This document shows positions 2,990 to 63,657 of a stretch of DNA of 64,000 bases, piece after piece (position 1 is the stretch's first letter; every line of letters starts with the position of its first letter). The stretch is taken from assembly GCF_964213995.1 (NCBI RefSeq), contig NW_027590142.1, positions 124,001 to 188,000 on the forward strand. The letters are read 5' to 3'. Both the position numbers and the translations under genes were made by a program. The stretch is from Mustelus asterias. Lineage: Eukaryota. The notes under the pieces were generated by a model that ran no database searches, was not told the origin of the DNA, and was given only the letters and a program-made list of their open reading frames with translations.

Positions 2990-4812
2990 ACAGAACATAG
3001 AACATTTCAGCGCAGTACAGGCCCTTCGGCCCTCGATGTTGCGCCGACCAGTGGTACCAATCTAAAGCCCCTCTAATCTACACTATTCCAATATCATCCA
3101 TATGTTTATCCAATAACCACTTGAACGCTCTCAACGTTGACGAGTCCACCACTGCTGCAGCCAGGGCATTCCACGCCCTTACTACTCTCTGAGTAAAGAA
3201 CGTACCTCTAACATCTGTCCTATATCTTTCACCCCTCAATTTAAAGCTATGTCCCCTCGTGCCAGCCAACACCATCCGACGAAAAAGGCTCTCACTATCC
3301 ACTCTATCCAATCCTCTGATCATCTTGTATGCCTCTATTAAGTCACCTCTTAACCTTCTTCTCTCTAACGAAAACAACCTCAAGCCCCTCAGCCTTTCCT
3401 CATACGATTTTCCCACCATACCAGGCAACATCCTGGTAAATCTCGTCTGCACCCTTTCCAACACTTCCACATCTTTCCTATAACACGGCGACCACAACTG
3501 TACGCAATATTCCAAATGCGGCCGCACCAGAGTTTTGTACAATTGCAGCATGACTTCCTGGCTCCGAAACTCAATCCCTCTACCAATAAAAGCTAACACA
3601 CCGTACGCCTTCTTAACAACCCTATCAACCTGGGTGCCAACTTTCAGGGATCTATGCACATGGACACCCAGATCCCTCTGTTCATCGACACTACCAAGTA
3701 TCTTACCATCAGCCCAGTACTCTGTATTCCTGTTACTCCTTCCAAAGTGAATCACCTCACATTTTTCCGCATTAAACTCCATTTGCCACCCCTCAGCCCT
3801 GCTCTGCAGCTTATCTATGTTCCTCTGTAACCTGCCACTTCCCTTCGCACTGTCTACAACTCCACCGACTTTAGTGTCATCTGCAAATTTACTAATCCAT
3901 CCTTCCACGCCCTCATCCAAGTCATTAATAAAAATGACAAACAGCAGTGGCACCAAAACAGATCCTTGCGGTACACCACTAGTAACTGAACTCCAGGATG
4001 AATATTTCCCATCAACCACCACCCTTTGTTTTCTTACAGCTAGCCAATTCCTGATCCAAACCACTAAATCACCCTCAATCCCATGTGTCCGTATTTTCTG
4101 CAAAAGCTTACCATGGGGAACCTTATCAAACGCTTTGCTGAAATCCATATACACCACATCAACCGCTTTACCCTCATCCTCCTCTTTGGTCACCTTCTTA
4201 AAGAACTCAATAAGGTTTGTGAGGCACGACCTACCCTTCACAAAACCGTGCTGACTGTCCCTAATCAAATCATTCCTTTCTCGGTGATTATAAATTCTAT
4301 CTCTTAAAATCTTTTCCAATACTTTGCCCACAACAGAAGTAAGGCACACCGGTCCCTAGTCCCCTTCCTGAACAAGGGGACAACATTTGCTATCCTCCAG
4401 TCTTCTGGCACTGTTCCTGTAGACAATGACGACACAAAGATCAAAGCCAAAGGCTCTGCAATCTCCTCTCGAGCCTCCCAGAGAATCCTAGGATAAATCC
4501 CATCCGGCCCAGGGGACCTATCTATTTTTACCCTTTCCAGAATTGCTAACACCTCCTCCTTATGAACATCAATCCCATCCAGTCCAACAGCCTGCATCTC
4601 AGTACTCCCCTCAACAACACTGTCCCTCTCCAGTGTGAATACCGACGAAAAATATTCATTTAGTGCCTTTCCTATCTCTTCAGACTCCACGCACAACTTC
4701 CCACTCCTGTCCTTGACTGGCCTACTCCTGTCCTTGACTGGCCCAGTCCTGTCCTTGACTGGCCCACTCCTGTCCTTGACTGGCCCACTCCTGTCCTTGA
4801 CTGGCCCTAATC
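2990..4812 (-). mobile_element. Young 5'-truncated CR1 LINE with a 423-aa open RT C-terminal frame (3078-4349), nested in a SINE
   Basis: QHGFVKGRSCLTNL, YMDFSKAFDKVPH, GVPQGSVL, FADD and RPHLEYCVQ motifs; tail TGTTCTATGTTCTGT; small internal deletion near 4350. Confidence 0.92.
4700..4807. repeat. 21-bp tandem repeat x5 (CCCACTCCTGTCCTTGACTGG) at the CR1 5' truncation
   Basis: Five near-identical units counted directly. Confidence 0.9.
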
Positions 4813-13627: not shown

Positions 13628-14635
13628 TTAAGCAGTGCAACAGCACGGTCTCCAGGTAAAGTTCTGGGACCTGAAAATATACAGCAAGGGATTGAGAAAG
13701 GCAGTGAAGGAAGTGAGAACCCACGTGTAAAATTGAACATTGCATCGGTAAAATGCTGCGCCTGGATTCGATAGCTCCAACAGATCTTTGACCCCAAAAT
13801 ACAATTCTGGAATGTGATAAGGGGCAAAGCAGAAAAGCAGAAGAGCCAAAATTCCCGCAATTGTCTTCAACACTTTCATCTTCATCAGCTTCATGGATTC
13901 TTTCCCTGTCCCCACTTCAATCAGCTTCTTTGATGTCAGGGCATAGCAGATAAATAGGATCAGGACTGGGACGGCAAACGCCATTACTTCAGAAATAAGA
14001 ATGAAGACTTTCCATGGTCTCCACTCTGTGGACATTTCCTTGCATGAATCTATATTTGACACTATTGTTCTCGCTATTAAGATCTCCGCTAGACTTAGAG
14101 CGAAAATTGCCAGCCAAGTTACAATGGACAGCACAACATAATATCGGTGCCTTCTCCAGGAGTGAGACCTGATGGGATGGACAATAGCGATGTACTGATC
14201 AACAGCAATGCATGCCATGAAAGGTGGGTTACCATAAAGGTTGATTACATACAAGAGATTAATAAAATCTACATATTGATCTACAAGCATTGAGAGAGTG
14301 TCTACAGTTAGAGCAATAATGTCAAGGGCGGAAGCAAGAATGACCAAAAGGTTAGTGATGGTTAAGTCAAGCAGGAGTATATCCGATGCTGACGAGAGTT
14401 TCTTTAATCTTATGATATGCCACAATGCAATTGCGTTCCCACCAATTCCCAATACAACTACTAAGCTAAGGAGGCAGAAAAAGATGGTCAATTGAGGCCA
14501 ATCCAATGGTTCAAAGCTGCTGTCAATTCCGGGCACGAGACTTGTATTTCCACTCTGATTGGATGTGTTGATCTCCGGCCAGCGGGCGGCGACTGTTGTA
14601 TTCCAGCTCACAAAAGTACTCATTCGATGTGACAT
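13628..14635 (-). CDS. Single-exon rhodopsin-class GPCR, delta group (P2Y/LPAR/PAR-like), 335 aa
   Basis: Seven hydrophobic segments; GN in TM1, NLYG..FMACIAVDQY in TM3, AIVHP, CFAPYH in TM6, NPLLY in TM7; N-terminal NxS/T sequons; C-terminal CCC; splice acceptor ttttag near 14656 just upstream of the ATG. Confidence 0.9.
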   Translation of the reverse strand: MSHRMSTFVSWNTTVAARWPEINTSNQSGNTSLVPGIDSSFEPLDWPQLTIFFCLLSLVVVLGIGGNAIALWHIIRLKKLSSASDILLLDLTITNLLVILASALDIIALTVDTLSMLVDQYVDFINLLYVINLYGNPPFMACIAVDQYIAIVHPIRSHSWRRHRYYVVLSIVTWLAIFALSLAEILIARTIVSNIDSCKEMSTEWRPWKVFILISEVMAFAVPVLILFICYALTSKKLIEVGTGKESMKLMKMKVLKTIAGILALLLFCFAPYHIPELYFGVKDLLELSNPGAAFYRCNVQFYTWVLTSFTAFLNPLLYIFRSQNFTWRPCCCTA

Positions 14636-15228
14636 CGCAAAATGAAGAGCACTGGCTAAAATATAAAGTTATATCATACAATTACAGTTGATAATACAGT
14701 GAGATTATACAGTAAGATTACTGCTTGTTAAGTTTTATGTTTTGTCTCCAAATCGCCAATGTTTTTGATAGGTACAGTCTGGGAAATGCTCTGCTCAGAA
14801 ATCTATGGATACCAAAGGACACGAGACATCCCAGTGCCAGCAGCATGCAGAATGGCAAAAATGAAGCAGAACCAGAAACGTGTAAATCTGCAAGTATATC
14901 AATGGGAAGAGGATAAGCAGGGAAAGAGTAGGGCTCAGTAAGGACTACGGGGAAACCTGTGGGTGGAAGCAGAAGATATTGGTAGGGTGTTGAGCGAATA
15001 TTTCACATCTGTCATCACCCACGAGAATGATGAGGAAGATATGGAAGTCGGGCAGAGAGATTGTGAGGCTCTGGAGGAAATTATTTCAGGGAGTGACAAG
15101 GTTTTGGAGTTATTGGCGGTCGTAAAAGTGGACAAATCTCCAGGTCGAAATACACTGTGTCCCAGCCTGTTGTGGGAGACAAGAGAGGAATTTTCAGGGA
15201 CTCTGGCCCAAAATTTTAATTTTAATTC

Positions 15229-15570
15229 AGGGCGGCACGATAGCACAGTGGTTAGCACTGCTGATTCACAGCTCCAGGGACCCGGGTTCGTTTCCCAGCT
15301 CGGGTCACTGTCTGTGTGGAGTTTGCACATTCTCCTCGTGTCTGCGTGGGTTTGCTCCGGGTGCTCCGGTTTCCTCCCACAGTCCAAAGATGTGCGGGTT
15401 AGGTTGATTGGCCAGGTTAAAAATTGCCCCTTAGAGTCCTGAGATGCGTAGGTTAGAGGGATTAGCGGGTAAATATGTGGGGGTAGGGCCTGGGTGGGAT
15501 TGTGGTCGGTGCCGACTCGATGGGCCGAATGGCCTCCTTCTGCACTGTAGGGTTTCTATGATTTCTATGA
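15229..15570 (+). mobile_element. HE1-like SINE, full length, nested in CR1
   Basis: Near-identical to the other young copies. Confidence 0.88.
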
Positions 15571-15689
15571 ATTACTCTCTGGCCAGGGGAGGTCATGATG
15601 TGGAGATGCCGACGTTGGACTGGGGAAACACAGGAAGATGTTTAACAACACCAGGTTAAAGTCCAACAGGTTTATTTGGTAGCAAAAGC

Positions 15690-15726
15690 CACAAGCTTTC
15701 GGAGCCTGAAGCTCCTTCTTCAGGTG
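15690..15726 (-). ncRNA. Minimal type I hammerhead ribozyme in the Penelope terminal repeat
   Basis: CAC-CUGAAGA-A-GGAGC(uucag)GCUCC-GAAA-GC-UU-GUG: core boxes, stem II, palindromic stem III and 3-bp stem I. Confidence 0.7.
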
Positions 15727-18214
15727 AGTGGGAATTCTGTCCACAAACAGGGCATAGAAAGACACAAACTCAATTTACAGAATAATGGTTGGAATGTGAA
15801 TACGTACAGCTAATCAAGTCTTAAAAGTACAAACAATGTGTGTAGAGAGAGCATTATGCCAGGTTAAGGAGATGTGTATTGTCTCCAGACAGGACAGCCA
15901 GTGAGACTCTGCAGGTTCAGGCAAGCTGTGGGGATTACAGATAGTGTGGCATGAACCCAATATCCCGGTTGAGGCTGTCTCATGTCTGGAACTTGGCTAT
16001 CAGTTTCTGCTCAGCGACTCTGCGCAGTCGTGTGTCGTGAAGGCCGCCTTGGAGAACGCTTACCCGAATATCAGAGGCCGAATGCCCGTGACCGCTTAAG
16101 TGCTCCCCAACAGGAAGTTTACAGACTTGCCGGGTGATTGTCGAGCAGTGTTCATTCATCCGTTGTCGCAGCGTCTGCATGGTTTCCCCAATGTACCATG
16201 CCTCGGGACATCCTTTCCTGCAGCGTATCATGTAGACAACATTGGCCGAGTTGCAAGAATATGTACCCTGTACCTGGTGGATGGTGTTCTCACGTGAGAT
16301 GAGGGTATTTGTGTCGATGATCCGGCACGTCTTGCAGAGGTTGCTGTGGCAGGGTTGTGTGGTGTCGTGGTCACTGTTCTCCTAAGGCTGGGTAGTTTGT
16401 TGCGGACAATGGCCTGTTTGAGGTTGCGCAGTTGTTTGAAGGCAAGAAGTGGGGGTGTGGGGAAGGCCTTGGTGAGATGTTCGTCTTCATCAATGACATG
16501 TTGAAGACTCCGGAGGAGATGCTATAGCTTCTCCGCTTCGGGGAAGTACTGGACGACGAAGGGTACTCTGTCCACCGTATCACGTGTTTGTCTTCTGAGG
16601 AGGTCAGTGTGGTTTTTCGCTGTGGCACGTCGGAACTGTCGATCGATGAGTCGAGCGCCATATCCTGTTCTTATGAGGGCATCTTTCTGCGTCTGGAGGT
16701 GGCTGTTGCGATCGTCCTCATCCGAGTAGATCCTGTGTATACGGAGGGCCTGTCCGTAGGGGATGGCTTCTTTTACGTGTTTAGGGTGGAAGCTGGAGAA
16801 GTGGAGCATCGTGAGGTTATCCGTGGGCTTGCAGTACAGTGAGGTGCTGAGGTGACCATCCTTAATGGAGATGCGTGTGTCCAAGAATGCAACCGATTCC
16901 GGAGAGTAGTCCAAGCTGAGTCTGATGGTAGGATGGAACTTGTTGATGTCATCATATAGTTGTTTCTGTGATTGTTCACCATGAGTCCAAAGGAAGAAAA
17001 ATCGGTTGAAGGTCCTGTGCGGACCTGTGCATGAAGATGTTGGCATATTGAGGTGCGAATATGGTCCCCATGGCTGTTCCGTGTGTCTGGATGAAGAACT
17101 GGTTGTTGAAGGTGAAGATATTGTGGTCCAGGATGAAGCGGATGAGATGTAAAATTGCATCTGGAAACTGGCAGTTGTCGGCGCTGAGCACTGAGGCCGT
17201 TGCAGCAATGCCATCATCGTGGGGGATGCTGGTGTAGAGTGCCGAGACATCCACTGTGACGAGGAGCGCTCCTGGTTCAACTGCTCCATCTGTGCCGAAT
17301 TTCTGTAGGAAGCCCGTAGTGTCGCGACAAAAGCTGGGGGTTCTTTGTACAATGGGTTTTAGGATGTCTTCGACATAGCCGGAGAGGTTCTCGCACAGGG
17401 TCCCATTGCCCGATACGATGGGACGGACGGGTGTGTTTGCCTTGTGTATCTTCAGGAGGCAGTAGAGATCTCCAATGCGGGGCGTACGTGGGATGAGAGC
17501 ACGGAGGGTGCTACCTCAAACAGACCATTGTCCGCAGCAAACTACCCAGCCTTCAGGAGAACAGTGACCACGACACCATACAACCCTACCACAGCAATCT
17601 CTGCAAGACGTGCCGGATCATCGACACAGATGCTATCATCTCACGTAAGAGCAGCATCCACCAGGTACACGGTACATACGTTTGCAACTCGGCCAACGTT
17701 GTCTACCTGATACGCTGCAGGAAAGGATGTCCCGAGGCATGGTACATTGGGGAAACCATACAGACGCTGCGACAACGGATGAATGAACATCGCTCGACAA
17801 TCGCCAGGCAAGACTGTAAACTTCCTGTTGGGGAGCACTTAAGCGGTCACGGGCATTCGGCCTCTGATATTTGGGTAAGCATTCTCCAAGGCGGCCTTCA
17901 CGACACACGACGGCGCAGAGTCGCTGAGCAGAAACTGATAGCCAAGTTCCGCACACATGAGGACAGCCTCAACCGGGATATTGGGTTCATGCCACACTAT
18001 CTGTAATCCCCACAGCTTGCCTGGACCTGCAGAGTCTCACTGGCTGTCCTGTCTGGAGACAATACACATCTCTTTAACCTGGCTTAATGCTCTCTCGACA
18101 CACAATGTTTGTACTTTTAAGACTTGATTAGCTGTCCGTATTCACATACCAACCATTATTCTGTAAATTGAGTTTGTGTCTTTCTATGCCCTGTTTGTGA
18201 ACAGAATTCCCACT

Positions 18215-18251
18215 CACCTGAAGAAGGAGCTTAAGGCTCCGAAAGCTTGTG
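18215..18251 (+). ncRNA. Minimal type I hammerhead ribozyme (second, inverted repeat)
   Basis: CAC-CTGAAGA-A-GGAGC(ttaag)GCTCC-GAAA-GCTT-GTG. Confidence 0.7.
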
Positions 18252-19879
18252 GCTTTTGCTACCAAATAAACCTGTTGGACTTTAACCTGGTGTTGTTAAA
18301 CTTTTCACCGGGGAGGTGCCAGAGGACTGGAGGACAGCTAATGTGATCCCGTTATTTATGAAAGGTTGCAGAGACAAGCCAGGTCTCTGGTTGGGAAACC
18401 AATGGAGAAGATTGTAAAGGAGGGAATCTATCTCCATTTGGAGAGGAAAGTTTGATCAGGGATAGTCAGCAAGGGTTGTCAGAGGGAGTTCATGCCGAAC
18501 GAATGTTTTTGAATTTTTTGAGCATGTAACCAAGTGTATAGATGAGGGTAGTGCGGTTGGGATAGTTTACATGGAGTTCAGCAAAGCCTTTGACAACGTC
18601 TCACATCGGAGACTTATTAAGAAGGCAAATGCACATGGGATACAAGGTGATCAGCTCAGGTGGATTCATAAATGGCTTAGCGGAAGGAAACAGAGGGTGA
18701 CGACAGACGGCTGCTTTAGTGACTGGAGGCCAGTGACCAGTGGCGTACCACAGGAATTCATGCTGGTCTCCCTATTGTTCGTCAGTTATATAAATGACAC
18801 AGATGACTATGTGGGGATAGGATCAGTATGTTTGCGGATGATGCAAAACTTGGCCGTGCGGTTAACAATGAGGCTGAGTGTCTTGGGACACAGGAAGATA
18901 TAGACGAGATGGTCAAATGGCTAGATAAGTGACAGATAGAATTTAACCCTGAAAAGTGTGAAGTGGTACACTTTGGAAGGAGTAAATTGACACGGAAGTA
19001 TCCGATGAAATGTCTGACGCTGGGTAGTTTCGTAGGACAAAGGGACATTGGTGTTTGTCCATAGATCTCTGAAGGCGAAAAATTAGGTTAAAAGAGTGGT
19101 GAAAAGGCATATGGCACATTCGCCTTCATCAATCGGGGTATAGATTACAAAAGCAGAGAGTTCATGATGGAGTTGCACAGAATTTTGATGAGGCCACAGC
19201 TGGAGTACTGTGTGCAGTTCTGGTCGCCACATTATAGGAAGGACGTGATCGCACTGGAAGGGGTGCAGAGGAGATTCACCAGGATGTTGCCGGGGAAGGA
19301 ACATTTAAGTTAGAAACAGAGGTTGGATAGGCTTGGGTCGTTTTCTCTCGGACAGAGTAGACTGAGGAGCGACCTGATTGAGGTGTTCAAGGTGATGAGG
19401 GGCATGGACAGTGTGGATAAGGAACAGCTGCTCCCCTTAGTTGAAGGGTCAGTTAAGAGGGGACACAAGTTAAAAATGAGGAGTGGGAGATTTCGGGGGG
19501 GATTTGAGGAAAAGCGTTTCTTACCCAGAGGGTGGTTACAGCCTGGAATGCACTGGCTGTTAGGGTGATGGGAGCAGATTGTCTCACATTCTTTAAAAAA
19601 AGTACCTGGATGTGCACTTGGCGCGCCATAATATTTACGGGTATGGGCCAAGTGGGATTAGGTGGGCAGGTCAGGGCCTTTAATGCGTCGCTGCGAACTC
19701 GATGGGCCGAAGGGACTCTTCTGCACTGTCGTATTATGTGATTCTGTGACTTTAGTTATTCAAGAACTGAAAGGAAAGTCATCTTGGATGTTGGAAAGTG
19801 AGCTATCTGGAAAATCTGGTGTAGTTCTAAATTTCTCCTAAGTTTTTCTGTTCTCTGATTTCTGTTTGTTACTCTCTTC

Positions 19880-27790: not shown

Positions 27791-28754
27791 TCACGAGGCA
27801 CAGCAATGAGTTCTCCATTGGAAGTTCTGGGACATGAAAATGTACGGCACGGGATTAAGGAAAGCAGAGAAGCAAGTGAGGGCCCAGGTATAGATCTTAA
27901 CATGGCATAAGTAAAAGAATGCTGCTCGATTCAATGGATCCATCAGGCCCTCACTCAAAAAATACAGTTCTGGGATGTGAAAAGGGGCAAAGCAGAAAAG
28001 GAGAAGAATCATGATTCCTGAAATGGTTTTCAGCACTTTTGTCTTCATCAGCTCCATATATTTCTTCCCAGATCCTGCTTCCGTCAGCTTCTTCACTGTC
28101 AGAGCATAGCAGATCAATAGGACCAGAACTGGCACAACAAATGTCATAGCCTCACAAAATAGCATGAACATTTACCGAGATCGCCTCGTTAAAATATTAT
28201 CCTTGCACGTGATACTTTCATATGCGGTGTTTCTTGTAAAGTGAAAGGCCGCCAGAGTCATGGCTAACACTGCCAGCCATGTTACAATGGATAGGGCGAC
28301 GTAGTATTGGGGCCTCCTCCAGGCATGGGACCTGATGGGATGGGAAAAGCGAGGTACCGGTCAATAGCAATGCAGGCCATGAATGATGGATTGCTTTTAA
28401 TGTTGACTAAACCGATGAGCAGATGGGTGTCAAGAAGTAGCTTCGTGAACTGACATCCAGGGATCAAGTGAATAAGATAAAATATAGAAGCCAAGATAAC
28501 CAAGATGTTGGTGATTGTTCGGTCAAGCAGGGGAACATCAGTCGCTGAAGAAACTTTCCTCAGTCTTGTGACATGCCACAGTGAAATTGAATGCCCAGCA
28601 ATGCTCAGCACGATAGTGAAGCTGAGGAGGCAAGGGAGGACGAGCGTTTCAATTTATTCAGTTGCTCCGGGTCTCTCAAAACTGGCATTGCCAGTATGAT
28701 TGGCAGAGTTCATCATCGTCCAATGATTGCATTCCAGCTCACAAACGTCGCCAT
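27791..28754 (-). pseudogene. Disabled paralogue of the P2Y/LPAR-like GPCR
   Basis: Starts MATFVSWN (vs MSTFVSWN); FMACIAIDRY, CFAPFH and NPVPY motifs; early in-frame stops, a 1-bp frameshift near 28347 and a TAA at 28172-28174. Confidence 0.9.
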
Positions 28755-52520: not shown

Positions 52521-53216
52521 ATTCTGGCCGAGCAAATGACTCTAAAATACCTTTAGAAGATTAAAAATAAGATGCAAATGAATTTGACCCTCCAACTGTC
52601 CTACTAAACAGGTTAGGGACTGCTCTAGTATGGAGTACAATATAGTAAATCTCACTTTCCATTTGCTCATCGAGCATTCCCAAGGCAGGTACATCACTGC
52701 TTAAAAATCACCCAATTCTCCCGCTCCAGTCTGACGTTTCTGCTCTCTCTCTCATGGTAACATTATGCTTTAGGGATCTAATTTCAGAGACGCCAAATCA
52801 AACATCAAGTCAAACTGTCACATTTCTCACAGGTACAAGTGTATTGAAGAAATAAATCAAATTTCACTCCCTGAAATACAGGCGAAGGAACCAGAAGATT
52901 TACAACCAGTCAGGCAGATTCCTGGCACCAACACGGTGACCACGCGGACAACAGACACATTACGGTGCAACAATCGATTTCCCAGCAGATATGTCTGTTC
53001 AATCTGTCAATTTCATTCAAACTGTTCGATTCTAATTGATTAATGAACAACTTACAACAACAGAAAATCAATAACCTCTTTTAAATAAAACTGATATTCA
53101 TTCCAAAACTCCTGTCAATTTTTAATTATTTCTCTGTCTCACTTCTCGAAAACTAAGTAAAAATGTAATTTCGCTGAAAATGAGCAATCGAAAATAACAG
53201 ATTCAGGACAATTCCA

Positions 53217-54343
53217 TGTCCCTAACAGAGATACAGTGACACTGTAACAATTCAATGTCCCTAACAGAGATACAGTGACACAGTAACAATTCAGGGTCCC
53301 TAACAGAGATGCAGTGACACTGTAACAATTCAATGTCCCTAACAGAGATACAGTGACACTGTAACAATTCAGTGTCCCTAACAGAGATACAGTGACACAG
53401 TAACAATTCAATGTCCCTAACAGAGATACAGTGACACAGTAACAATTCAATGTCCCTAACAGAGATGCAGTGACACAGTAACAATTCAATGTCCCTAACA
53501 GAGATACAGTGACACAGTAACAATTCAATGTCCCTAACAGAGATACAGTGACACTGTAGCAATTCAATGTCCCTAACAGAGATACAGTGACACTGTAGCA
53601 ATTCAATGTCCCTAACAGAGATACAGTGACACAGTAACAATTCAGTGTCCCTAACAGAGATGCAGTAACACTGTAACAATTCAATGTCCCTAACAGAGAT
53701 ACAGTGACACTGTAGCAATTCAATGTCCCTAACAGAGATGCAGTGACACAGTAACAATTCAGTGTCCCTAACAGAGATGCAGTGACACAGTAACAATTCA
53801 GTGTCCCTAACAGAGATGCAGTGACACTGTAACAATTCAATGTCCCTAACAGAGATGCAGTGACACAGTAACAATTCAGTGTCCCTAACAGAGATGCAGT
53901 GACACAGTAACAATTCAGTGTCCCTAACAGAGATGCAGTGACACAGTAACAATTCAGTGTCCCTAACAGAGATGCAGTGACACTGTAACAATTCAATGTC
54001 CCTAACAGAGATACAGTGACACTGTAGCAATTCAATGTCCCTGACAGAGATACAGTGACACAGTAACAATTCAGTGTCCCTAACAGAGATGCAGTGACAC
54101 TGTAACAATTCAATGTCCCTAACAGAGATACAGTGACACTGTAGCAATTCAATGTCCCTAACAGAGATGCAGTGACACAGTAACAATTCAGTGTCCCTAA
54201 CAGAGATGCAGTGATACAGTAACAATTCAGTGTCCCTAACAGAGATGCAGTGACACTGTAACAATTCAGTGTCCCTAACAGAGATGCAGTGACACAGTAA
54301 CAATTCAGTGTCCCTAACATAGATGCAGTGACACAGTCACAAT
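53217..54343. repeat. 39-bp minisatellite, about 29 copies (TGTCCCTAACAGAGATRCAGTGACACWGTARCAATTCAR)
   Basis: Unit starts at 53217 and 54309 are 28 x 39 bp apart; there are no unique spacers. Confidence 0.97.
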
Positions 54344-57304
54344 TAAACAATTAAACAAACCAAGAAACATGGACGTTGAAAATCATTACCTGATTCGATC
54401 TAATTTCTTAATTAAATGTAATCAACAAAATAATCAAGGCAAAGCACTTTATCGAGCTGAGCACAGCTGAGTAAAGAAATGTTTTGTTTCTGAATTCAGT
54501 TCTGATACAATTAAATATTCTCTAAAACGGGTGATATTTTGCAGGCCAGTGCAATATTCAAGGTCTTTTGTTTTGAATTAATATTATATTGTAAGTTATT
54601 GTTATTTGTCAGTTCGTTCTCCTGTTAGCTGATTTGTACTCTGTAATAAAATGAGTTATCAATCATTCAAAACGTGCTTCTGCCTCCAACATTGTTAAAT
54701 AATTAGGTTACAATTAAATCTTAGACAATGTTGAACAATAATTTCAAATTACTGAATGGAAACATTCAGACATCTGTCATTCATTTACTTAAATCTAATC
54801 ACATTGTAATATTTTAACTTTTTAACCTTTACTACAAATGTCTTATTATAACCTACAAACGTGTTAAAATGCATAGTTCTGAATTTCTATAGGCGGTAAC
54901 GGCCTGACAGTTTGAAATCAATCATACTGCTTCCTAGATTTAATAATTTAGAGCATCCAAATAACTTAATTACTGAACATATCGTTTAATTAAAGAAGAT
55001 CTGAATTAAACAGTGCAAACACAAAGAGGACAATTGATTCAAATCCTCTGTAACACTAAAACATGATGCAGAATACAAGTCCAGACTTTTTTTTCATTAT
55101 AATATTTAATAAGAACATAAGGTTCAGATAGAATCAATTCTTCTGTTCCGTTATTTATTCTTCCCATAATTCTATCCTGTGTTCAGCAGTAGTGGGAGAC
55201 AGAATGTTATTATTAAGTGAAGAGCTAAGATTACTTTTATAATATATATAATATTATTATAATATTTTATATAAATTAATCTTTTTGCATTTCAAGCATT
55301 AACTTCTCCATCTTTAGCCAGTTTCTATTGACACTTTACTACAATTTAATTTACTACAATTCAAACATAATCTAATCTAATGAACAATTACTTGAGTGTA
55401 AGCGAATTCCACCCGTCAGAAATCTCTGTTCAATCTGCCAAATTTATTCAAACAGTTTGATTCTAATTTATCAATGATAAAATTGCAACAACAAAAAAAT
55501 CAATAAACTATTTTAAATTAAACTGATATTCATTTCAAAACTCCCTTCAATCTTTAAATATCTCTCCCTGTCTGTCTCAAATCTCGAAAACTGGGCAAAA
55601 ATGTACTTTTTCTGAAAATGAGTAATGTCCCTAACAGAGATATAGTGGCATAGTGAGAATTGTAATTCATGATTTATTTTAATTCTTAAGCATCAGTTAA
55701 CACTAATAAGATACTATAACATGTATTTATTTTATTTTTCCGAAATCTGTTTGTTTTATCCCTACAAGAATTTTCAAACGCAGATTTATTTTCATTTAGC
55801 CAGAAAACGTGTCACTGCTCATTATCACTGAGCTAAACAATACAGAAACAATTGAGCAACCACAAACAGTTCAACAAATTTTAAGATTAGATTAGGGATT
55901 AATTATCGTGTATCCAACTATAGATTACTTGGAAGGAATAATGTGGTTGCGCCTGCACAGAAAGAATGTAACAATCGGATACATAAATTGCCAAATAGCA
56001 ATGTCTTATTTTCCGAAACTCATATTTAAGTGAATGCGAACTTAATCAAGGAGATAACGATTAATGCAAAGTATCTTGTTAAACTGAGCGCTGCTGTGGA
56101 AGCAGCATGTTATCATTGAAATAGTTTCTGGAATTATCACAAAATATTTCCAGCACAGAATTTTTTCTGGTCATGTTAATTGTGTGCAAAGCACAGCAGA
56201 ACTAGTAGAAGTCATTAATGCTAAATGATATTAATACAAAATAATCTTTGGTGAATGTGGTGAATGGTGAATATTACTGATTAATAATTGTTTGATTCAT
56301 ATTAATTTTACTATCAAACTTGTTAATGAGAAGTTTGTGACTGCAGCAACGACTTACTGTCCGAATGAACTTTGTAAGTCATGATTTATTTTAATTTGGA
56401 AGCGTTAGTTAAAATTTATAAAAACGCTGTAATGTCTCTATCTTTTTCCCAAAACCTGCCTGTTTTCTCTCTACATGGATTTTCAAACTCATAGATTGTT
56501 TGCTTTCAACCAGAAAACGTGTAACAGCTCAGTACCACCGAGATTAAACAATGCAGAACAATGCTGAAATGCCAAACCATTTCACACATTTTAAATATTC
56601 ACAGTGGCCGAACCACAAAATCTCCTCAAAAGAAACACTCCAAAACAGATCACTGAGGGATGGAACCCCGTTTCACGGAATAGCAGCTCAATTATTCATT
56701 CAACAGAATCAAATGGAACATTGCAAGAACATCTCAATGTTGAATTCAGCAAAACAGCTCGTCACCAAATGCATGAATCATTAACCTAAACAGAAATATG
56801 GAATAATAGCAATAACGTTGCGCGGAGGTGGAATATGTCCGACAAATTAGTATTGAAACTTTAACACATTTTATTTATATTGGGTCAAATTTCAAACATA
56901 TTTAAACATCTGGGAAAAACTTCAGCCATCAGATATCACCGAGGTTAAACATTGCAGATACCCCAAACAGTGATTGCAGTGGCAAACTATGTTCTGAACG
57001 AGCGGCGTGATCTGCAATTATCACTTACGATAAAAAAATACAAATGCAATAAAGCATGCCCGATTTCTGTCAAGCAATTTAACACCTATAGACTGTTTGT
57101 ATTCAAGCACAAAGCGTATAACAGATCAGTGTAACCGACTTTAAACAATGCAGAAACAATGCTGAATCGAAAAACCATCTCACACGTTTTACTTATTCAA
57201 AGTCACCCAGATACAAAATCTCCTCACCAGAAATGCACATCACTGAGCGACTGAACTCCGTTTCATGCAGGAGCAGCTCAATTCTACAAACACTTTCAAC
57301 AGAA

Positions 57305-58781: not shown

Positions 58782-59149
58782 GCACTCACTCTCTGTTCAG
58801 TACTGCCGCTCAATATTCACTACAAATAGACCAATATTTCTGAGCAATTTACAATTTATGCAGCAGTTTATAAAACACAATCCAGAAACATCTCCTCCAA
58901 GTATCAGAAATATTAAAACGAGCATTATATCCCAGGTCTGCAATTGCAGAAACTGTTAACGGTAAATATAAATAGAGTGAAAAGCACCATTATGTCTGTG
59001 GGTTTGCTCGGTTTAATGTTTAATTTTCTCTAAGTTAGGTTTGTCAGAAGCGGTTTGTGTTTTAGTTCTGATCACTGTCATTAACATTACACTTAAAACA
59101 GTTATTGACAATCAGGTTATGATGGAAGTTGCTGCACTCCCTCTCGAGC

Positions 59150-59188
59150 TGTTCTTGTTGAGGTCCAGCCCTGGTTCCTCTTGCTGTG
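59150..59188 (-). promoter_or_regulatory. VH 23-RSS
   Basis: CACAGCA-23 bp-ACAAGAACA directly after YYCARD. Confidence 0.88.
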
Positions 59189-59496
59189 GTCTCTTGCACA
59201 GTAATAGATGGCGGTGTCTTCAGTCTTCAGGCTCATCATGTCCAAAGCGAAGATATTGTTCGAAAGGTCTTTGGACGGAGTAAATCGGCCCTGAATCTGT
59301 GGGTCATAGTAGGTGGTGTAAAATGAACTTCTGTATCCAACCAACCACTCCAGCCCCTGTCCGGGAACCTGTCTAATCCAGTTCATCCAGTTGCTGCCAA
59401 GATCGAAGCCACTGGTTTTACAGGTCAGTCTCAGGAAGCCGCCGGGACGCCCTGTTTCTGCCTCCAGCTGAGTCAACACAATCTCCGACTGGACAC
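59189..59496 (-). CDS. IGHV: IgM VH exon (open frame)
   Basis: tttacag|VQSEIVLTQ...LTCKTSGF...[13 protein letters not shown]...RFT...[11 protein letters not shown]. Confidence 0.97.
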
Positions 59497-59623
59497 CTGT
59501 AAAAACATGTCAAATTACCGAGGATTAATCTTGGTGAAATGATTGCTGACTCTGGGTCATTCCAAAGGTAGGCTAATTCTGATACAGTAACAGTGAGAGA
59601 CGTGGACAAGAAAAACTAATCAC

Positions 59624-60425: not shown

Positions 60426-61619
60426 GGTGAGAGATCGCCCAGAAAAGCATCTGGAAGGAGTGGCGGAGACGGTGGTCCAACCGGAACCGAGAGGTCCCCA
60501 GCCGGCCTTCTGTCAACAAGGTAAGCAGACTTGCATGCATGTAAATCCTTGGTGTCAGAAAGGGGTTTTCTCGAGGCCCGGCGCACCCGGCTCTCTGCTG
60601 GTCCTGGATCTCCCCAACCCAAAAAGATATCCTGCACAGGTAAAACCAAATTGTGTAAAATTTTTTTGAGAGACTGAGTCTGATCTGAAGAGCAGAATTT
60701 TTGCATGCAAAAGCGCGCTGCGAATACTGTATTGTCTGTGAATGGGTAAAAAGTGAGACGGGAAAAAGGCCGAAAGCTAAAGTAATGCAATTAGGTTAAG
60801 TCAAGCGGTTTGGAGCGGGTTTTTCAGGTCACGACTTGCCCAGAAGAGAGTAAGTGTGGGAAAATCTGCCAGTCCAAACCTACCCAGGACCTCGGGTAAG
60901 GGACGTCAACCGAGAGGGAGAGAGATCAGTGAGAGATCACTCTCTGACCTAATACAGTAGCCAAAAGCACAGGAGTGGATTTTAACCACAGGAAAGGGGA
61001 GTAGCAGCTAGAATAGAGAAAGTAAAAGACCAATTTGAACAAACTGGTCTGAGAAAACAGCGTGAAGGACAGAAATAAGAGAGAGAGTCGGAATATAGGT
61101 AGGGTAATAACTAACAACTTGAAAAATTACCCTGACAAAACTGCCTGGTGACAAGATTGAAAATAACTAATCTTTGAATAATAAAAAAAAACGGAAGCAA
61201 CACTGGATTGGAAAAAGATTACACACATAATTAACTTAGAGGAGATAAAGAATGAGTGGCCGTATGTAAAATGGGAAAGAGTAGTCGATAGGAATTGGAT
61301 AGACGAAATAAAATTGGAAACCCTAGAGAAATTAATAAAGGGATCTGACCGATACAGGATTCTTATACACATAGACGAGCAAGTGAAAACCTACTACCCT
61401 CTGGCCCGGGAGAGGAAAATAGTGCCGGGACAGGGGACTACGGGGAAGTGGATATCAGGACCCCGGTTAGAATTACAGATATTGGCAAAAGAAATCCAAA
61501 GGAAAGGTAAACAGGGGACTGAGCACGGAAAAACAATACAGCAAGTAATAATCACTGTAATACCTAACTCTGACGGACTAAGTGACAAAAATTGCGACAG
61601 TGATCCAAAAAGACGAGTA

Positions 61620-63657
61620 ATGGCGCACCAAGTTAAGACACCAGTGGAGATATTAGGGGATAAGTTCCCAGCCCTTAGGGGAGATATAGAACACGTCTCT
61701 AAAAAATGGGCCAAAAGAACAAATAAGACCGATACACAGTGGCCGGAGGAAGGCACATGGTCCATAGAGAGGTGTGAGGACCAGAAGGGAATGATAAAGA
61801 ACTATAAGATTAAGGATAAATCGAGCAAAAGAGGGGAAAAGCGAGAAAAGGAGTTAGAGATATTAGCCCTATTCCAACAAGAAGGGAAAGAGAGAAGAGG
61901 GGTATGGAGGGGAGGTAGGATGCAGATGCCAGTACAACTTGAGGAAAAAGCAAAATTGGAAGATCCAAACGTAGCCCCACCCCCATACTTAGAGAAACAG
62001 AGCTCCACGGGACTGTACCCAGTTATATCAGGCACAATGAATTTTGAGGGAGAATATGACATAGAACAGATGACGAAGGAGGAATGGGCATGAAAGGAGG
62101 GAGAAAAGAAACAAGGTATAGAGGAAGCAGCTAGGAAAACAGAAGAGGTTTTGGAGGAGCTGAATCTCAGGAGGAAGGAGTTAGAGGATGAAGTAAAGGT
62201 GGTAGAACTTTTGGAATGGGCAAAGAAGGTAATGGAAAAGGAAAAAGAACGAGAAGAGGGAGGAGAAAATGTTAGAAATAAATATGAGGGGAAAACAGGA
62301 AATGATTTTTGCGAGTATGCAAGTGAGACATCACAAGGATGGAGGTGGAAGCACCCAGAGGAAGGTAGAATGGCGAGAGAGACGGAAGGAGAAACAGAAG
62401 AGAGTAGTGAAGACGAAGGGAGGCAATCAATGTTAGGGGTGCAAAGAAAATCAAGGCGGGAAAGGCACCCACCTGTAAAGTTTCCAGATGTGGATAGGAG
62501 AGGGAAAAGGGTATTCCCGGTGATTCTGAAGGGTGGCAGACCGCAGTATATCCCTTGGTCAGGTCAGGATTTGCCTAATTTAATTAATGAATTACCCAAT
62601 ATTTTGGATGGGGCTGGAAGGTGGATTGGACAGTTGGAGGCGGGAATGGTGGGAGGTGACGAAGGTGCTAGGAATGGACCAAATGGCGGAAGTAATGAGA
62701 CGTGCTGGCATCCCGACCGCAGCTTATGACCCAGCGGTGGATGGGACACTAATGGACCAGTACCGCCAAGACATCTGGCAGGCACTGTGGGATATGTACC
62801 CCAATCGAATGGATGTAAAAACCCTAAAGGGAGAGCCACTGGGTGAGGAGGAGAATGCAGCGGTGTATGTGGAGAATCAATTAAAAAGGTGGAGAAGGGA
62901 CACGGAGAGGGACATTCTAATAGACCCACTGACCAACTCCATGTTCCGGGCTGCAATCCTAGAGGGCTTGCCAGCCCCAGCTAAGACAAGGCTGGAGGAA
63001 GTGGTGGGCTTGGACTCAAAAAATTACCGAGAGTTTGTGGATTATGTTGCCCATGCAGTAGAGAGACATCGCAAAGATGAAAAGAATGCAGACAAACAGC
63101 TGAAGGAGGTACAACGTAAACTCCTTCAGGCACAGTTGGAGGAGATCAAAAGCAAGGATAAACTGAAGGCAAAAGAGGATCTCGCACCCAGAAAAATAGC
63201 ACCAATGATGGTGGAGCAAAAGCCAGAGGAAATACCTGCACTAATCAAAGGGGGGAGCGGAGATGGAGGCCAGCCCGTCATAACCTATAACATTTCTGCC
63301 TTCCCACTGTCCATGAACCCAGGAGCCTATGGCCTAAATTATCAAAACCCATACGCCCTGCAAAGTCAGACTGACTGGAATAGAAATGGGAAAGGACAGG
63401 GAGGTGGTAGGCCACCCTATCAGAATCAGAGAGGACAGGGACAGGTTAATCATCAGACTCCGAGACAGGGACCACTGCCTGGCCCTTCAGGTGTGTGTTG
63501 GGGGTGCGGGGAGGCAGGGCACATAAAAAGGAATTGCCCGCGGAATTTCCCCAGACAGGGAGAAAACCAGCAGCAGACAGGCCAACAACTGATCCAAGGA
63601 TCGCCAAACAGCATCCCGATGTTTCAAGGGCCGGTAAACCATCAGAATTCCCCATAG
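61620..63657 (+). pseudogene. gag: Class I ERV gag with an in-frame TGA (62091-62093) and a frameshift near 62655
   Basis: WPEEGT matrix motif, PPPY and LYP late domains, capsid-like region, CWGCGEAGHIKRNC zinc knuckle. Confidence 0.88.

Follow-up and report, generated by a model that had tools for sequence, protein, structure and literature searches.

A Penelope-like element family of Mustelus asterias with a recurrent insertion site in CR1 and a candidate spaced-palindrome target

Introduction

The integration of Penelope-like elements (PLEs) is poorly understood, and the target biases that were found described for them concern AT-rich DNA, microsatellites and rDNA. The layout of PLEs itself has already been published (PMC8557442; PMC3846280). 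In the published description of the Neptune/Nematis-type elements, which carry a C-terminal endonuclease (EN+), a CX2-5CxxC linker is tied to microsatellite targeting, and the same source presents the PLE-X elements of spike mosses, which target 28S rDNA, as EN-minus, devoid of a GIY-YIG domain and target-restricted (PMC8557442). The account given of PAc, the Poseidon element of Anolis carolinensis, reports that both strands are cut and extended, with two adjacent internal starts of reverse transcription that define the tail, and it includes a hammerhead near the ORF start and a predicted dimer (PMC11167929). According to this account, PAc prefers ATT and AT-rich DNA, and its starts lie 111-118 nt into the ORF and are non-homologous to the cut DNA.

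No paper describing a palindromic PLE target, or PLE targeting of CR1, was found in the literature outside subscription papers, Repbase and supplements. Non-LTR elements of the Tx1 clade carry an APE-type endonuclease. Transposon targeting is described for several of them, with Tx1 inserting into Tx1D and Tx1-Mar, together with SINEU-3, into Mariner-N4, and up to 90% of the Tx1-type target-specific copies are reported to be flanked by their target (PMC4494074). The PLE analysed here resembles the Tx1 elements of that report in being found repeatedly within another transposon family, but differs in that about 2.5% of its copies lie at the site concerned and about 10% lie in CR1, which equals background (PMC4494074). 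Similarly, it enters a precise position in a multicopy sequence as PLE-X does, whereas, unlike PLE-X as described, it has a GIY-YIG domain and is dispersed (PMC8557442).

The PLE family and its protein

The 3.68-Gb genome contains 33,803 occurrences of this PLE's terminal 18-mer. An intact ORF of 893 aa was present in 19 of the 20 copies retrieved, the encoded proteins being 99.4-100% identical, and the family is young and probably active. The single ORF codes for a reverse transcriptase (RT) and, C-terminally, a GIY-YIG domain preceded by a C-x4-C-x2-C linker; the linker and the CCHH residues are seen in the query and in most of 45 homologues. The full protein matched RVT_1, and GIY-YIG fell below the threshold there, though its motif is visible in the alignment. 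The nearest named homologues are shark proteins, and the 120 homologues listed include no named references of the Neptune/Nematis clade. Of 150 N-terminal matches that were scored, most fall within open frames about 912-913 codons long, and several are arranged in tandem at 3,097 bp.

As in other EN+ Penelope-like elements, the copies display a terminal repeat (pseudo-LTR), partial tandems (period 3,097 bp), an inverted 5′ arm and a one-sided tail of 30-40 bp. In 72 of 100 copies the inverted arm does not reach the tail, and the end of the element lies at the ORF start codon. The partial tandems, the inverted 5′-truncated arm, the one-sided tail, the single ORF with RT and C-terminal GIY-YIG and the upstream CX2-5CxxC linker are all shared with the Neptune/Nematis-type elements as published, a likeness of ORF layout and motifs rather than of position in an RT tree (PMC8557442).

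The terminal repeat contains a hammerhead-like core (15685..15735 on the minus strand, mirrored at about 18210-18255 on the plus strand of the window defined below). An Rfam search for a ribozyme in the PLE gave 0 matches. The core is a by-eye match to what we take to be the consensus of the hammerhead core motif, and its stem-loop II differs among copies yet stays paired. Many fold-back points cluster just past this core, about 130-140 nt from the end. In some copies the PLE end reaches 12 to over 200 nt into the ORF, past the usual tail, which implies that reverse transcription now and then starts further along the RNA.

Two insertions at the same CR1 codons

Two insertions of this family into CR1 are found in the window, that is, the whole stretch of 64,000 nucleotides that was analysed (contig NW_027590142.1, positions 124,001 to 188,000). 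At site 1, an insertion of 2,712 bp on the minus strand (15594..18305) consists of a 5′-truncated body (about 15594-17509), corresponding to the EN and part of the RT, and of a head-to-head inverted arm (about 17510-18305) without the last ~40-nt tail. Its coding parts are 92-94% identical to the young 893-aa unit and include an RT match (Pfam RVT_1, E 4e-6) and two GIY-YIG pieces (E 3e-5 and 4e-4). On the plus strand, the insertion is preceded by the left half-site CTGGC (15579..15583) and a 10-bp left copy of the duplication (15584..15593), and followed by the 12-bp right copy (18306-18317) and the half-site GCCAG, the stretch 18306..18322 corresponding to the CR1 codons T-G-E-V-P-E. At site 2, only the tail end of the PLE is present, as a 69-bp terminal fragment on the minus strand (39250..39318). 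It lies on the plus strand between the half-site CTGGC with the left duplication (39233..39249, duplication 39238-39249) and the right duplication with the half-site CCCAG (39319..39335, duplication 39319-39330), and this duplication is a perfect 12 bp. The initial annotation had taken the duplication to be shorter at site 1 than at site 2; the 12 bp of site 2 stand, and at site 1 the shortness concerns the left copy, which probably is the 12-mer minus two bases.

The hosts are a degraded ORF2 fragment (copy 1, 14935..19480, plus strand, ends approximate) and a copy of the main young subfamily comprising the ORF2 linker and RT (copy 2, 38640..40676, plus strand, ends approximate). APE-like and RT sequence is seen in the host family, which by its motifs is presumably CR1. 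A SINE-like insert (about 15230-15569) also interrupts copy 1, some 24 bp upstream of site 1. That one PLE had entered the same nucleotide of two different CR1 elements, as the initial annotation proposed, agrees with what was found: both junctions read GGGGAGGT|CATGATGTGGAGATGCCG (15586-15611 and 39242-39267) at the codons G-E-V|P-E-D-W, a combination with only these 2 matches in the window against a chance expectation of 0.03. The inserts are, as it had stated, unlike in length, and the hosts, which share 67% identity over 321 bp, belong to different CR1 subfamilies. The homologous CR1 site near 4410 (4396..4435, minus strand) is indeed uninterrupted; its left half-site is weaker, with TTG replacing CTG, and it scores 9.2 against 14.4 with the target matrix described below. 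An older terminal fragment of the PLE, about 75% identical (45758..45878, minus strand), has no CR1 context that could be seen, again as first reported. Within the CR1 near 4700 lies a short tandem repeat (~4700-4770).

A genome-wide hotspot in CR1

Collection of the junctions genome-wide showed that the preference for this CR1 site is a strong, nucleotide-precise hotspot. GGGGAGGT precedes 452 of the 33,803 PLE ends, and all 30 junctions sampled from these fall at the CR1 codons G-E-V|P-E-D-W, several subfamilies of CR1 and of the PLE being represented. The main CR1 subfamily has 1,461 empty sites; its antisense inserts number about 300 when the exact end is required (31 in the first 100 of 964 rows, by eye) and 503 when the end is relaxed; a further 181 lie in the opposite orientation and share the same duplication, so that the antisense orientation is not fixed as had been supposed from the two window sites. 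Occupancy of the hotspot in this subfamily is thus about 25-32% over both orientations, or ~27,000-fold over the per-base rate, figures that are estimates because the patterns for empty and filled sites differ in stringency. Seen from the PLE, about 675 antisense and at least 181 sense copies at the hotspot make up about 2.5% of the family, and 1 of the first 100 junctions lies there.

These insertions are independent events, as the initial annotation had argued for the two in the window. All 40 measurable hotspot inserts differ in length and fold-back points, and the most similar pairs still have different inversion junctions. On a tree of the host CR1 copies, occupied and empty labels were no more clustered than in shuffles (26 changes vs 24.8); this tree holds 52 of 82 rows, 30 having been dropped for less than 200 nt of upstream CR1 match, and is star-like and poorly resolved, with 1 of 49 inner branches well supported.

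A spaced palindrome as the target signal

The target signal of the PLE was found to be a spaced palindrome, CTG-N16/17-CAG, around a duplication of 12-13 bp. The sample took the first 100 junctions on contig 1 and another 74 picked by a single base at -30. For 102 of these 174 the target could be rebuilt, with a duplication mode of 12 bp; the other 72 may fit the motif less well. Centred CTG-N16-CAG was present in 21 of 101 targets and N17 in 12, any other spacer occurring at most 3 times. With no registration applied, CAG peaks at +2 (26) and CTG at -5 (36). After registration by EM, which inflates half-site counts, the C, A and G of the half-site were present in 182, 185 and 136 of 200, and the half-site carries 4.55 bits of information vs 1.6-1.8 in 5 random controls. 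Synergy between the half-sites was considered and rejected, both CAG being found in 33 targets vs 34 expected. The rebuilt targets are non-repetitive spaced palindromes and display no insertion bias towards microsatellites, a statement that covers the rebuilt part of the 174 junctions. In its palindromic target and its clear 12-13 bp duplication, this PLE is unlike the Neptune/Nematis-type elements as described (PMC8557442).

Along one CR1 copy, a symmetric matrix built from 100 sites other than the hotspot places G-E-V|P-E 1st, +383 2nd and +443 3rd, and it gives 14.4 and 15.6 for the two window targets. In a held-out test with 20 young copies, 19 of them with an intact ORF, 15 of the 18 rebuilt targets exceeded the 95% null, and none of these 18 lies at the hotspot. 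Off-site PLE inserts in 90 CR1 hosts followed the same ranking, with 10 at +383 (55 uninterrupted), 2 at +443 (63 uninterrupted) and 3 elsewhere. The initial annotation had regarded GGGGAGGT as the signal. However, this 8-mer recurs identically 200 bp further downstream in CR1, where 4,312 copies genome-wide are empty and 0 carry an insertion (the 90 hosts likewise have 0, 72 of them being uninterrupted there), and therefore GGGGAGGT is not the signal. The initial annotation had itself raised the possibility that it is part of the PLE consensus; its final GT also matches the element's own continuation. Over the whole sample, 69 of 174 junctions match this continuation by at least 3 nt vs about 5 expected.

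The second CR1 hotspot lies +372 to +387 from the first, at the codons W-x-G-Q-R-R-Q-R. Two CR1 copies, L040 and L089, have deletions with breaks at +372 and +378, which may be failed cuts, and another copy (L065) has an internal inversion at +160 from the hotspot. A recurrent PLE insertion site is also present in the abundant SINE-like repeat that occurs at window position 15230-15569.

Proposed mechanism

The reading that we consider probable is that the PLE inserts at the centre of CTG-N16/17-CAG and that the CR1 site is hot because it is a near-optimal copy of this target. The PLE endonuclease would likely cut the palindrome on both strands, two endonuclease domains, probably as a dimer, each reading a CAG/CAT half-site 2 nt beyond its own nick. 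Dimeric two-nick cutting is here inferred from the symmetry of the target. The nicks, 12-13 nt apart, would leave 3′ overhangs of 12-13 nt, one of which may serve as primer for reverse transcription from the RNA stretch surrounding the start codon of the ORF, aided by 2-4 nt of microhomology, while the other may prime some 35-45 nt deeper in the terminal repeat, giving rise to the inverted arm. Outer-start microhomology of at least 3 nt to the RNA start window was observed in 30 cases vs about 13.6 expected. For the second start, the expected and the control strand gave 29 each at this threshold, i.e. no strand-specific signal. In several CR1 subfamilies, the half-sites would come from conserved codons, CTG for Leu and CCA G for Pro-Glu, and 3-4 nt of each hotspot overhang would agree with the first RNA start window.

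Priming at both ends, as proposed here, fits the in vitro behaviour reported for PAc, whereas the outer start at the first codons, the microhomology of 2-4 nt and the CTG-N16/17-CAG target set this PLE apart from PAc as reported (PMC11167929). The spaced palindrome and the fixed stagger of 12-13 nt may be regarded as genomic evidence for two-fold symmetric cutting and both-end priming, and the latter would explain the head-to-head arms and the one-sided tail of the PLE class. With regard to the CR1 site, conserved codons can make a shared hotspot without evolved targeting, at which a considerable fraction of the copies of another element is knocked out.

CR1 preference and alternative explanations

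An overall enrichment of this PLE in CR1 is absent. CR1 flanked 11 junctions among the first 100 and 7 among the further 74. In comparison, it was present in 93 of 1,000 windows taken at random and in 133 of 993 weighted by the matrix, flank and background shares being both lower bounds because the CR1 library consists of relatives of one reference. The resulting 18 of 174 falls below the 20% of flanks that serves as a criterion of target specificity in the published account of Tx1-type elements (PMC4494074). The idea put forward in the initial annotation, that the PLE is a dedicated parasite which recognises GGGGAGGT in CR1 and has CR1 as its niche, draws on the 452 junctions, the uniform sample of 30 and the ~27,000-fold excess over the per-base rate, but has become very unlikely given the untouched 8-mer at +200, the ~97% of copies found elsewhere (the site takes 1 of the first 100 junctions and 0 of the 18 young full-length targets) and a CR1 flank share equal to background. 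The hotspot is likely to be mostly a by-product of the target signal and not a hunt for CR1. That the insertions descend from one ancestral PLE-in-CR1 chimera, or a few, multiplied through CR1 retrotransposition, duplication or break-induced gene conversion, is exceedingly improbable. The precise common junction and the poorly resolved, star-like host tree would suit such copying, but the inserts differ in length, fold-back and inversion junction, occur in both orientations and in several subfamilies of PLE and CR1, each having a duplication of its own, and lie on hosts whose occupied and empty labels are unclustered (26 changes vs 24.8 in the 52 of 82 rows kept). Guidance by RNA, in which the PLE tail would pair with a CR1 site that it resembles, starts from 9 of 11 bases alike by eye between the PLE end and the CR1 site; we hold it to be highly unlikely, since a perfectly matching site in the PLE's own tail was hit only 3 times in 33,803 copies, the best PLE-to-CR1 match (26.3 bits vs 20-28 in 20 shuffles) falls off the site, and the resemblance is missing at the second hot site.

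Of the initial annotation, which is partly supported as a whole, the part that survives is an excess of about 5-25-fold over motif-matched sites at young CR1 copies, which is unexplained. The matrix predicts an occupancy of 4.6-5.5% for the hotspot vs about 25% observed, and leave-one-out calibration gives about 1% for scores of at least 12 (from 8 insertions and 14 background sites). Where the same core lies outside CR1, the sites are occupied at about 0.8% in one orientation vs 17% at CR1, where the 0.8% depends on a right half present in 2 of 19 rebuilt non-CR1 sites (95% CI 1.3-33%) and the CR1 shares, 45 and ~70 of 100 rows, were read by eye. Regional co-accumulation (1 PLE end in 30 kb of non-CR1 flank vs 7 in 200 kb of background, at low power) and a shared CAGAGG sub-motif (in register at 0 of 19 non-CR1 left-matched sites, by eye) were both rejected as causes. 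Half-site synergy, RNA homology and copying likewise failed to account for the excess. A tentative possibility is that the palindrome is required and that a bias towards young CR1 copies, arising from longer-range sequence, from open or unmethylated chromatin soon after insertion or from a tethering protein, raises its use about ten-fold. Besides the residual excess, this bias is favoured by the second CR1 site being filled in 7 of 26 copies chosen only by an empty first site, by occupied hosts reaching further upstream than empty ones (median ~830 vs 340 nt, 21 vs 30 copies, P=0.015) and by the signature of the oldest PLE subfamily, which is found in 0 of 40 cases at the hotspot vs 25 of 174 (P=0.002); exposure of the site has therefore been shorter, not longer. 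Against it stands the absence of overall CR1 enrichment. Further, the SINE site is itself about 5-fold above the matrix prediction (2 of 100 junctions), and therefore part of the gap is model error; primer microhomology may contribute 2-4-fold. At +383, the exact 18-mer end is present in only 2 of 10 inserts, the like-for-like excess is about 3-4-fold and none of the first 100 junctions is found. A bias of this kind is compatible with the palindrome explanation as an added layer. More speculative, and rather doubtful at present, is the combined picture of a PLE with two half-sites and a staggered cut that is also drawn about ten-fold to young CR1, representing an emerging transposon-on-transposon niche; if this ten-fold draw were true, ORF2 would be disabled in at least a quarter of a co-active LINE subfamily.

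Other features of the window

The window also contains immunoglobulin heavy-chain constant exons and a V segment (41534-45309 and 59117-59509), and two GPCR-like genes (13628-14668 and 27791-28653), the second of which is apparently broken. Gag-like ORFs with a zinc knuckle, listed in several frames at 61185-63657, would belong to an LTR element or provirus, and a long array of 33-bp tandem repeats with open frames extends over 53139-54350.
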